From a virus (Duplodnaviria > Heunggongvirae > Uroviricota > Caudoviricetes), in IMG/VR virus record IMGVR_UViG_2718218100_000001: DNA of 64,000 nt; one strand, 5' to 3'. Positions 21,001 through 24,000 of this stretch are shown here, one piece after another; within the stretch, counting starts at the first letter, position 1; each line of letters opens with the position of its first letter. Position numbers: made by a program.

Positions 21001-24000
21001 ATATAGGCTTTATAAAAACATCCTGACTGATTATATACCTGATGATATTGATCGTTCAGAACTCTCATAAGATGGAGAACAGTTTCTGCACTCTCATTCT
21101 CTTTTGGTATAATTTCATGAATGATGCTGTCCAGTTGATATTTTTGCTTGCATGTTAGGATTTTTGTAATTCTTTCATCGATTTCAATGCATATTGAATT
21201 ATTTTTATCGGATAATAACAAATCATTTTCCTGTGTATTTGTTTGTATCTCTTGTGGGATATTAATTACCACATCCGTACATGTTCTATCCACCTCATTT
21301 GTCTTTATGTTGTCAAGAAAATCATTTAACGTCAGTTGAGAACCCAATTCATTAATGTAGTCCAATGATGACGTAGAAGAGCTATTATCAAGAAAATCGT
21401 TCAGAGTGAGCTCGGAGTCGTTTCTTGTTATCGGATATACATTTGTGGAAGCGGCTAATTTAATACTCCGGTTGCTGGAGGTAGAAGCTGTTGGTTCAGA
21501 GGTTGACGAACACTGCATGTCAATGCATACATAACCTTTATTTGAAGTTGAATTTGGAATCAAGTTTCCTCCTGAATTAATGGTTTTTCATAATACTAAC
21601 TATTGATAAAAATATTTTGCATTTCATTAAAATAAAAAATCCCATGGAAAATATTTTTTGTTAGTTATTACATACAGCACATCAGGTCGTCAATATAGTC
21701 TAACTATAGTTATCACCAAAAACTTGCCTCGATTTTAGATTTTTCCAGTATTTGTAGATATTGCACTGAACACCGAATACGTAGCAGAGGGTGTCTACAC
21801 GATAACGTTCTATGAGCTACCATGTTGTCGAAAAATTGTTTAGTGAGTATGACATCAGGAATGTGGTGGTCTGTTTTAATATTTCTATTTCTATTTCTAT
21901 TTCTATTTCTATTTCTATTTCTATTTCTATTTCTATTTCTATTTCTGTTTGTTGTGGTTTTTTCTTTAGTTCATGTATTTCGATTTGTTTCTGAATTATC
22001 GGGGGTAGTGTCTTCCCTTTTCCCTGAGGCTTATCATGCAGTTATTTTCGCCATCTTGGTATTGTGGAAATACCGACATCCATAGCTTTGGTGAGCTCTG
22101 TTCAGGTGGCCAAATTCAGAAAACCATTACGGAGGAAGAAGGCGATGGCTAAACCAGCGCGAAGACGATGTAACCGTAAAAGAGAAGATTTAACTGTTAA
22201 AAGGATATTTGAGTTACTAAGTTTCGATAAATCTACCGGGGTATTTAGATGGAAAGTTCCCACTCAGGGAAGGATAGCATTAAATAGTGTTGCTGGAGCT
22301 TTTGATTCCAACGGTTATTCAATGATCATGATAGATGGGCGTAGATATAAAACTCACGTCTTAGTTTTTTACATAACTCATAATCGTTGGCCTGCTGGTC
22401 AAATTGACCACGTTAATGGAATTAGGACCGACAATAGGCCAGAAAATTTAAGAGAATGCCTGCCAATAGAAAATTCAAGAAATATAAGGATCCGAAAGAA
22501 TAGCAAATCAGGTTGCAGAGGGGTTACTTGGCACAAACGACAGAAAAAATGGAATGTTAGGCTAGGATTCCATGGCAAGAGTAAACACTTCGGATGCTTT
22601 GATGATCTGGAGTTAGCGGTACTAGTTGCTGAAGAAGCCCGAGATAAGTATTACGGTGATTTTTCCGGCAACGAAAGGAGCACTTATGCGAATCTATCGA
22701 AGGAAATGTAAATGTTGCAATGAATGGTTTATACCAAAATATCAAAATCAATATTGGTGTAATGAGATTTGTGGAACCAAGATAGCACTCGAACGACGAA
22801 GTAAAGAACGCGAAAAAGCGGAAAAGGCAGAAAAGGCAGCAGAGAAGAAACGACGACGAGAGGAGCAGAAACAGAAAGATAAACTGAAGATTCGAAAACT
22901 CGCCTTAAAGCCCCGCAGTTACTGGATTAAACAAGCCCAACAAGCCGTAAACGCCTTCATCAGAGAAAGAGACCGCGACTTACCATGTATCTCGTGCGGA
23001 ACGCTCACGTCTGCTCAGTGGGATGCCGGACATTACCGGACAACTGCTGCGACACCTCAACTCCGATTTGATGAACGCAATATTCACAAGCAATGCGTGG
23101 TGTGCAACCAGCACAAAAGCGGAAATCTCGTTCCGTATCGCGTCGAACTGATTAACCGCATCGGGCAGGAAGCAGTAGACGAAATCGAATCGAACCATAA
23201 CCGCCATCGCTGGACTGTCGAAGAATGCAGGGCGATCAAGGCGAAGTATCAGCAGAAACTTAAAGACCTGCGAAACAGCAGAAGTGAGGCCGCATGACGT
23301 TCACAGTAAAAACCATTCCTGACATGCTCGTTGAGGCATATGAAAATCAGACCGAGGTAGCCAGAATACTGAACTGTAGTCGCAACACGGTCAGAAAATA
23401 CACTGGCGATAAAGAAGGAAAAAGACACGCTATTGTCAACGGTGTTCTTATGGTTCATCGCGGATGGGGTAAAGATACTGATGCGTGATATCCGGCAGGT
23501 TCTTGAGTGCTGGGGGGCATGGGCGGCAAATAACCATGAGGATGTGACCTGGTCACCCATTGCCGCCGGATTTAAGGGACTGATCCCCGAAAAAGTAAAA
23601 TCACGCCCGCAGTGCTGTGACGATGATGCGATGGTGATATGCGGGTGTATAGCCCGCCTTTACCGGAACAATCGCGATCTGCATGACTTGCTGGTTGATT
23701 ATTACGTGCTGGGGGGGACGTTCATGGCGCTGGCACGGAAACATGGGTGCTCTGACACCTGTATAGGTAAACGCCTTCACAAAGCGGAGGGGATTGTTGA
23801 AGGCATGCTGATGATGCTGGGAGTGAGGCTTGAGATGGATCGGTATGTTGAGCGTGAATTGCCGGGAGGGAGAACCTCTGTATTTTATCAGCGAAAAAAT
23901 AGTTTACGATCGTAAAAATCTGCATATCATGATAAGAGTGGTTACATTGCCACGCTGCTTAACCCGCCGATGCGCGGGTTTTTTTGTACCCAGAATCCTG

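Follow-up and report, generated by a model that had tools for sequence, protein, structure and literature searches.

The tandem repeat known as TR1, Vhec4, O157-9 and VNTR-9 is a single locus that goes under four synonyms (PMC3768571, PMC3321953). Its published repeat unit, given for TR1, is AAATAG, and the TR1 primer is ACTGCATGATAAGCCTCAGG (PMC2246123). As VNTR-9, which is amplified with the primer GCGCTGGTTTAGCCATCGCCTTCTTCC, the locus has been described with 6-23 repeats, 15 alleles, a diversity index of 0.90 and 31.7% null alleles (PMC3321953). Serial passage has yielded 4.3-4.6e-5 events per generation per strain (PMC3777172). The subject of this report is a perfect (ATTTCT)11 tract in a stretch of 64,000 nucleotides (IMG/VR virus record IMGVR_UViG_2718218100_000001), the whole of which is referred to here as the window. 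The window is a lambdoid Stx1a prophage. The tract is the long-known Escherichia coli O157 locus of MLVA (the analysis of variable-number tandem repeats at multiple loci) named above, already known and not new, and it lies inside the relic of an insertion sequence (IS) related to IS911. It is very probably a neutral, hypermutable, slippage-prone microsatellite in non-functional DNA of a lambdoid prophage moron.

Contingency loci are the other described systems that invite comparison. Those acting via promoters or upstream regions include the TA repeats of hifA/hifB, the TAAA tract upstream of Neisseria nadA, the 7-bp repeats upstream of Haemophilus hmw and the AGAT repeats of uspA2.

Identity of the repeat

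The tract consists of eleven perfect units, 66 nt in all. This count, made in the original prediction, was confirmed by direct reading of the sequence and by Tandem Repeats Finder (TRF), which reports 21880-21950 with period 6, 11.8 copies, 98% matches and a score of 135. No other perfect short tandem repeat of at least 18 nt occurs in the 64 kb; in 20 shuffles the longest reached 15 nt. ATTTCT is a reverse-complement rotation of the published TR1 unit AAATAG. The elements that identify the locus are as follows.

21881-21946, no strand assigned: perfect hexanucleotide microsatellite (ATTTCT)11, reading (AGAAAT)11 on the minus strand and thus of the AAATAG type; established from sequence, TRF, shuffles, and the published unit and locus synonyms
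21866-21880, no strand assigned: 15 bp directly left of the tract, GTGGTCTGTTTTAAT, the sole left-flank sequence shared with the O157:H7 VNTR-9 allele, in which an IS30 end abuts it
22023-22042, minus strand: exact binding site of the TR1 primer ACTGCATGATAAGCCTCAGG
22134-22160, minus strand: exact binding site of the labelled VNTR-9 primer GCGCTGGTTTAGCCATCGCCTTCTTCC, overlapping the HNH/ninG-type start codon

Exact matches to both primers on the HNH side of the tract were found in the window, where none is expected by chance. The partner primers of the TR1 and VNTR-9 pairs have no match in the window with up to three mismatches allowed. Both are present in the IS30 transposase remnant of O157:H7 strain Z1812 (L002 4738-4768 and 4846-4865), so that in this strain the full TR1 and VNTR-9 pairs flank the same repeat. 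In the window the same repeat thus stands in another context on its left, and this copy is not an allele that can be typed by polymerase chain reaction (PCR): since the partner primers are absent, standard PCR would give a null allele for this copy. The original prediction did not recognize the repeat as an established MLVA marker; the primer and unit matches make that identity clear.

Two genomic contexts

The tract and its right flank occur in 523 of 5426 complete E. coli genomes. The left flank takes two forms. In the first, which is that of the window, the tract stands beside a minus-strand gene for a 590-aa protein; this flank is present in 245 of the 523 tract-bearing genomes. In O157, O111, O26, O145 and Escherichia albertii, the tract is found next to the 590-aa gene in Stx1a and related prophages, and a 480-bp stretch around the window tract matches the Stx1a prophage of O157 strain 644-PT8 with 100% identity. 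In the E. albertii prophage the 2.84-kb insert corresponding to window positions 19288-22127 is 92.8% identical, and the tract occupies the same place. The second form was found by a separate search of complete E. coli genomes, in which an IS30 flank adjoins the tract in about 280 genomes (O157:H7). Here everything from 15 bp left of the tract onward, including the 590-aa gene, is replaced by the IS30 remnant. The two contexts have in common the tract, the entire right flank and only the 15 bp GTGGTCTGTTTTAAT of the left flank. Some O157 genomes carry both copies, among them 644-PT8 (L041), 180-PT54 and F6321. Two exact-pattern scans covering one genome per species gave no match that would indicate a wider taxonomic spread.

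The repeat locus is accessory prophage DNA. A PCR null allele does not mean that the repeat is absent, since repeat and right flank occur in two contexts. In O157 genomes with two copies, the standard VNTR-9 primers amplify only the IS30-flanked one, and in-silico MLVA with no anchor but the repeat and right flank could pick up the wrong copy.

Copy-number variation

Perfect units number 4-14 across 31 loci (29 IMG/VR prophage loci together with L001 and L002), and a single right-flank haplotype alone spans this entire range. In complete genomes with the 590-aa-gene context, span lengths imply approximately 5-23 units, on the assumption that, but for a 1-bp flank indel, length differences sit in the tract. 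In 28 such genomes, sampled at even spacing, the count is mostly 7-11 units: 5 units occur twice, 7 five times, 8 five times, 9 four times, 10 five times and 11 three times, with one genome each at 12, 13, 15 and 23. In the IS30 context the range is about 4-18 units, as judged from spans and from the points where alignments start. Strains of O111 alone have 6, 7, 9, 10 and 11 units, and the diverged E. albertii prophage has 6. Interrupted units (ATTTCC, GTTTCT, ACTTCT and AATTCT) lie near the tract ends, as in typical microsatellite decay.

The expectation that the tract changes copy number by slippage is borne out by the counted units, by the spans, by the E. albertii allele and by the published passage experiments (PMC3777172); an identical copy number across related genomes, which would have spoken against it, is clearly not what is seen. 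Closely related strains differ in copy number, here as in the literature. By the same evidence the tract is a hypermutable simple-sequence tract of the kind found in contingency loci. Folding of the tract RNA gives 0 to -0.5 kcal/mol on either strand. Both strands are predicted to be unstructured, which points to plain slippage and not to hairpin-driven change.

An insertion sequence relic around the tract

The tract lies near the right end of an AT-rich insert with 27-39% GC, compared with about 51% in the backbone; homology of the lambda type, at the ninF/ninG junction, restarts at 22128. The original prediction treated the DNA around the tract as intergenic. Nucleotide and translated searches identify it as a dead element of the IS3 family.

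19288-22127, no strand assigned: AT-rich insert carrying the 590-aa gene and the VNTR-bearing IS relic, between ninE and the ninF/ninG-type junction
21739-22127, minus strand: IS3-family (IS911-like) relic with inner left inverted repeat, orfA pseudogene and orfB start; the microsatellite is inside the orfA relic
about 22107 to 21835, minus strand: orfA pseudogene with in-frame stops and a 117-bp internal deletion
21834 to 21739, minus strand: first approximately 32 codons of orfB

A blastn search with 21588-22127 against a 2.3-Gb phage collection matched the IS911/IS3-family transposase genes of Sf6, SfII and SEN22 (E 2e-19 to 1e-16). The 181 bp right of the tract matched 2222 plasmid records. 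The best among the plasmid matches listed have 79% identity and span 293 bp for 176 query bases, which indicates a 117-bp deletion in the window copy. With tblastn, OrfA residues 24-98 align on the minus strand at 45% identity (E 8e-16) across in-frame stops, and OrfB residues 16-47 follow contiguously on the same strand at 53% identity (E 5e-7). The orfA-orfB arrangement of the IS3 family is thus preserved. An intact IS is not: some 390 bp are left, with in-frame stops, the 117-bp deletion and no orfB past about codon 47. A Pfam search with the degenerate OrfA-like translation gave no match, and the assignment rests on blastn and tblastn. By these alignments, 21739-22127 is the decayed left end of an IS911-like element, a relic and not a functional IS.

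The tract sits exactly where the Sf6 copy of IS911 reads CGCATTGAAATGGAGAATGAAATATTAAAAAAGG, encoding ...RIEMENEILKK. At this position intact IS911 carries an imperfect hexamer series, ATTGAAATGGAGAATGAAATATT, and the tract itself, read in the OrfA frame, is (EI)n. It is plausible from this alignment that the imperfect hexamers GAAATG-GAGAAT-GAAATA are the proto-repeat of the microsatellite. The transposase gene of the IS911-like element would have died, after which the orfA proto-repeat would have been homogenized and expanded to (AGAAAT)n. From then on the tract would gain and lose whole 6-bp units by slipped-strand mispairing during replication. A microsatellite that arises by decay of a coding sequence and can be traced to its proto-repeat argues against reading function into the tract. 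No paper linking IS911 or an IS relic to this VNTR was found in the literature, and neither the IS911-like relic around it nor its expansion from an orfA proto-repeat was found published.

The inner end of the relic falls in a block upstream of the 590-aa gene, 21660-21800, in which the E. coli and E. albertii prophages hardly differ. The 100 bp that lie closer to the start codon of this gene are clearly more diverged.

Does the tract regulate its neighbours?

The genes around the tract are arranged as follows.

19015-19287: ninE
19791-21563, minus strand: 590-aa cargo gene, phrog_9230, function unknown
22145-22711, plus strand: HNH_3 and AP2 endonuclease open reading frame (ORF), beginning at a ninG-type start codon
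22686-23297, plus strand: ninG
24413-25648: stx1A and stx1B

The minus-strand 590-aa gene is on the left, its start codon 317 bp from the tract, and the plus-strand HNH_3/AP2 ORF starts 198 bp to the right. The divergent intergenic geometry originally described is therefore correct. It was also proposed that such a tract can act as a phase-variable promoter spacer, and this is not supported. At 66 bp the tract is too long to separate -35 and -10 elements. A consensus promoter scan of 21300-22300 returned 0 sites, and a permissive position-weight scan of both strands of 21500-22200 placed no sigma-70-like site in or across the tract, and none of its scores exceeded the shuffle median. On the minus strand the best candidate (TTGACG at 21693, TAATAA at 21670) is about 190 bp left of the tract within the block 21660-21800, and weak plus-strand candidates lie 60-100 bp to its right. 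The spacer proposal is further disfavoured by the tract being long and variable in the approximately 280 O157:H7 genomes that lack the 590-aa gene, and by chromosomal homologues of this gene that have no upstream tract. In an E. albertii chromosomal paralogue, homology begins no earlier than 24 bp upstream of the start codon, and there is no tract; the Salmonella homologues, whose matches are confined to the coding region, likewise have none. On these two cases the tract was rejected as part of the gene's own regulatory region.

A broader form of the idea is that the tract is a contingency-type cis-regulatory element. Changes in unit number would shift distance and helical phase (6 bp being about 0.57 turn), or alter an AT-rich tract bound by H-NS, and either would modulate the 590-aa gene or HNH-ninG. 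The TAAA tract of nadA and the 7-bp repeats of hmw are analogues for such a mechanism. The position of the tract in a divergent, AT-rich region (31-38% GC) between two genes, its hypervariability and its persistence at the same position in the diverged E. albertii prophage are all in keeping with this explanation. Set against it are the lack of any promoter-like site in or across the tract, with flanking candidates not above shuffle background; the nature of the DNA, which is a dead transposase gene and not an evolved regulatory region; the retention of a variable tract in O157:H7 without the cargo gene; and the cargo gene homologues that lack this upstream region. In addition, HNH-ninG is expected to be expressed from the early rightward lambdoid operon under antitermination, and would need no local promoter. 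On balance a cis-regulatory element of this type is very unlikely, and a regulatory role for the tract is unsupported. The placement typical of a contingency locus is missing too: the scans show no promoter-like site in or across the tract, the 6-bp unit keeps the reading frame, and the overlapping ORFs are artefacts. No paper reporting a function for O157-9 was found in the literature.

More generally, the tract might not be neutral. Its length could set Rho loading, or another length-dependent event, some 200 nt upstream of HNH-ninG and then of Q and stx1, or it could tune the 590-aa candidate virulence gene via phasing or H-NS. If this were true, slippage would give heritable, reversible sub-populations differing in leaky Q/Stx1 expression or induction, and a marker in routine typing use would turn out to be a contingency element borne by a phage. 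We regard this as very unlikely.

An effect at the RNA level has a still slimmer chance of being correct. One version has the plus-strand (AUUUCU)n, which is expected to belong to the early rightward transcript, act as a Rho-loading (rut) site that scales with unit number and tunes read-through into ninG-Q-stx1. In the other, A-R-N triplets of the minus-strand (AGAAAU)n would be bound by the distal face of Hfq, for which such triplets are the recognized motif; this version is relevant only if the 590-aa gene has a long 5' leader that takes in the tract, and no known promoter places it there. In favour of an RNA-level effect, (AUUUCU)n is free of G and has a C every 6 nt, and the tract is predicted to be unstructured on both strands. 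Nine plus-strand regions in 64 kb pass a rut-like filter (78-nt window, C/G of at least 3, six C spaced 11-13 nt), and the tract is the poorest of them in G, with 2 in 78 nt. A weak hairpin followed by a T-run comes after the tract (22001-22017). The argument is nevertheless one of composition alone, with a C content of 1 in 6, and the filter is permissive, since 51 regions pass it on the other strand. N-modified polymerase is expected to ignore terminators of this kind, and the origin of the tract as a decayed transposase gene speaks against design.

A structured RNA or known RNA family was rejected on the near-zero folding energies and on Rfam, which, at E up to 1 over 19200-22800, returned no family matching the tract. 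Its single hit lies elsewhere, at 19694-19761: a weak match to MIR1444, a family of plant microRNAs (27.9 bits where the gathering score is 80, E 0.019), which is almost certainly due to chance in AT-rich DNA.

Reading frames across the tract

Two plus-strand ORFs run through the tract, both antisense to the transposase relic.

21812-21994, plus strand: '(IS)n' ORF, 60 aa, annotated by the Prokaryotic Genome Annotation Pipeline (PGAP) as hypothetical protein WP_001430471.1
21822-22085, plus strand: '(LF)n' ORF, 87 aa

These had been dismissed from the outset as translation artefacts, and rightly. The start codons of both are absent from all IS30-flanked alleles, and no purine-rich ribosome-binding sequence precedes either ATG. 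Single-base-pair indels switch the frame through the tract from IS to LF in L004, L006, L022 and E. albertii. Of the 87-aa ORF, 6 aa are left in L004, L006 and L022 and 49 aa in L019; in E. albertii it ends after 6 codons. The 60-aa ORF has no Pfam or PHROGs match, and the (EI)n frame of the minus strand lacks a start codon once past its upstream stop. A real small protein was rejected on the missing Pfam and PHROGs matches of the 60-aa ORF and the lack of frame conservation; WP_001430471.1 is very likely spurious. That the tract encodes a repetitive peptide whose length is set by copy number, whether (IS)n or (LF)n on the plus strand or, on the minus strand, a coiled-coil (EI)n remnant of OrfA, can be given almost no credence in the face of this evidence, even though PGAP annotates 21812-21994, hexamer units never break the reading frame, and the two 1-bp indels flanking the tract in L004, L006 and L022 compensate each other and keep the 60-aa ORF open.

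Weighing the explanations

Neutral slippage in a dead transposase gene accounts best for the locus. In O157:H7 the tract is long, pure and variable without the 590-aa gene, that is, independently of the cargo gene, and nothing found indicates that its copy-number changes have a phenotypic consequence. Several points nevertheless weigh against neutrality. The tract has kept its length and purity in two separate left-flank contexts and also in an E. albertii moron that is 7% diverged, and such persistence could reflect selection and not only continued slippage. The right flank, 21947-22127, always accompanies the tract (approximately 523 of 523 E. coli genomes searched), so the comparison of contexts leaves room for an effect on downstream HNH-ninG-Q. 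The plus-strand RNA of the tract is unusually G-poor and forms a rut-like stretch. Finally, in AT-rich DNA consensus promoter scans give only weak evidence that sites are absent. The neutral microsatellite remains the explanation we consider very probable. It offers little new biology, the repeat being a standard epidemiological marker with documented variability.

Other features of the window

The 590-aa protein has no Pfam, NCBIfam, PADLOC or PDB match, and its N-terminus is rich in Ser and Thr. Homologues occur only in bacteria with type III secretion systems, namely in E. albertii (71% identity, chromosomal, near nleF), in Salmonella enterica (about 49%, in an islet between cdd and sanA) and in Providencia alcalifaciens (L032-L035, L038-L040). 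The protein is possibly an uncharacterized secreted effector. A defence-system context was considered and rejected, given the PADLOC null for the 590-aa protein and only a marginal ZorE match for the HNH protein. A short T-run at 21584-21592, close upstream of the TTG with which the 590-aa gene starts, is polymorphic among prophages, with the forms GGTTTTTCAT, GGTTTTCCAT and GGTTTCCAT. The shortest form puts an upstream ATG in frame with the gene and adds 9 codons; in the other two, the same ATG starts an upstream ORF of 4 codons.

On the other side of the tract, the 46 bp at 22128-22173 correspond to the junction of ninF and ninG in many lambdoid phages, and ninG restarts at 22686, overlapping the HNH stop. 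The HNH_3/AP2 ORF (region 22128-22711) looks like a free-standing homing-endonuclease gene inserted in the 5' end of ninG. Strain ETEC1718 has the same HNH gene directly after ninF, without relic or VNTR.

Four further repeats were noted in the window. At 15661-15738 there are four copies of a unit of about 20 bp, CATCCCTCAAAACGAGGGA, which TRF alternatively reads as 2 x 39 bp; they resemble the lambda ori iterons inside replication gene O. TRF also lists a 12-bp unit repeated 4.4 times at 31899-31951, AAATCGATCATG, a perfect 13-bp unit repeated 2.5 times at 29874-29906, and a 45-bp x 2 repeat at 42480-42570, which may be collagen-like, in a probable tail-fibre region.

Comparison with known systems

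The contingency loci at hifA/hifB, nadA, hmw and uspA2 share several properties with the window: a short-unit, non-coding repeat upstream of genes, slipped-strand mispairing and a high rate of change. Their tracts, however, lie in or next to mapped promoter elements or 5' leaders, with demonstrated effects on expression. The window tract differs in having no promoter-like element in or beside it, in lying in a dead transposase gene and in persisting where one of the flanking genes is gone.

IS911 is the closest relative of the surrounding DNA. The relic is 73-79% identical to it at the DNA level across the inner left inverted repeat, orfA and the beginning of orfB, with orientation and gene order kept. 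It is unlike IS911 in the 117-bp deletion, which takes the orfA start, in its in-frame stops and in an orfB cut after about 32 codons. The IS911 segment GAAATGGAGAATGAAAT of orfA is replaced by (AGAAAT)n. In the alignment with Sf6 IS911, the heptamer that follows the repeat position is AAAAAAG in IS911, where it is the programmed frameshift heptamer, and AAAACAG in the relic.

VNTR-9 of O157:H7 is the same repeat. It has the same 6-bp unit, the same right flank, the same 15 bp on the left, whole-unit gains and losses, and many alleles. At the typed locus, the IS30 remnant that adjoins the tract carries the second primer of each pair, and the prophage is without stx; in the window, the left side is instead formed by the rest of the IS911-like relic and the 590-aa gene, in an Stx1a prophage.

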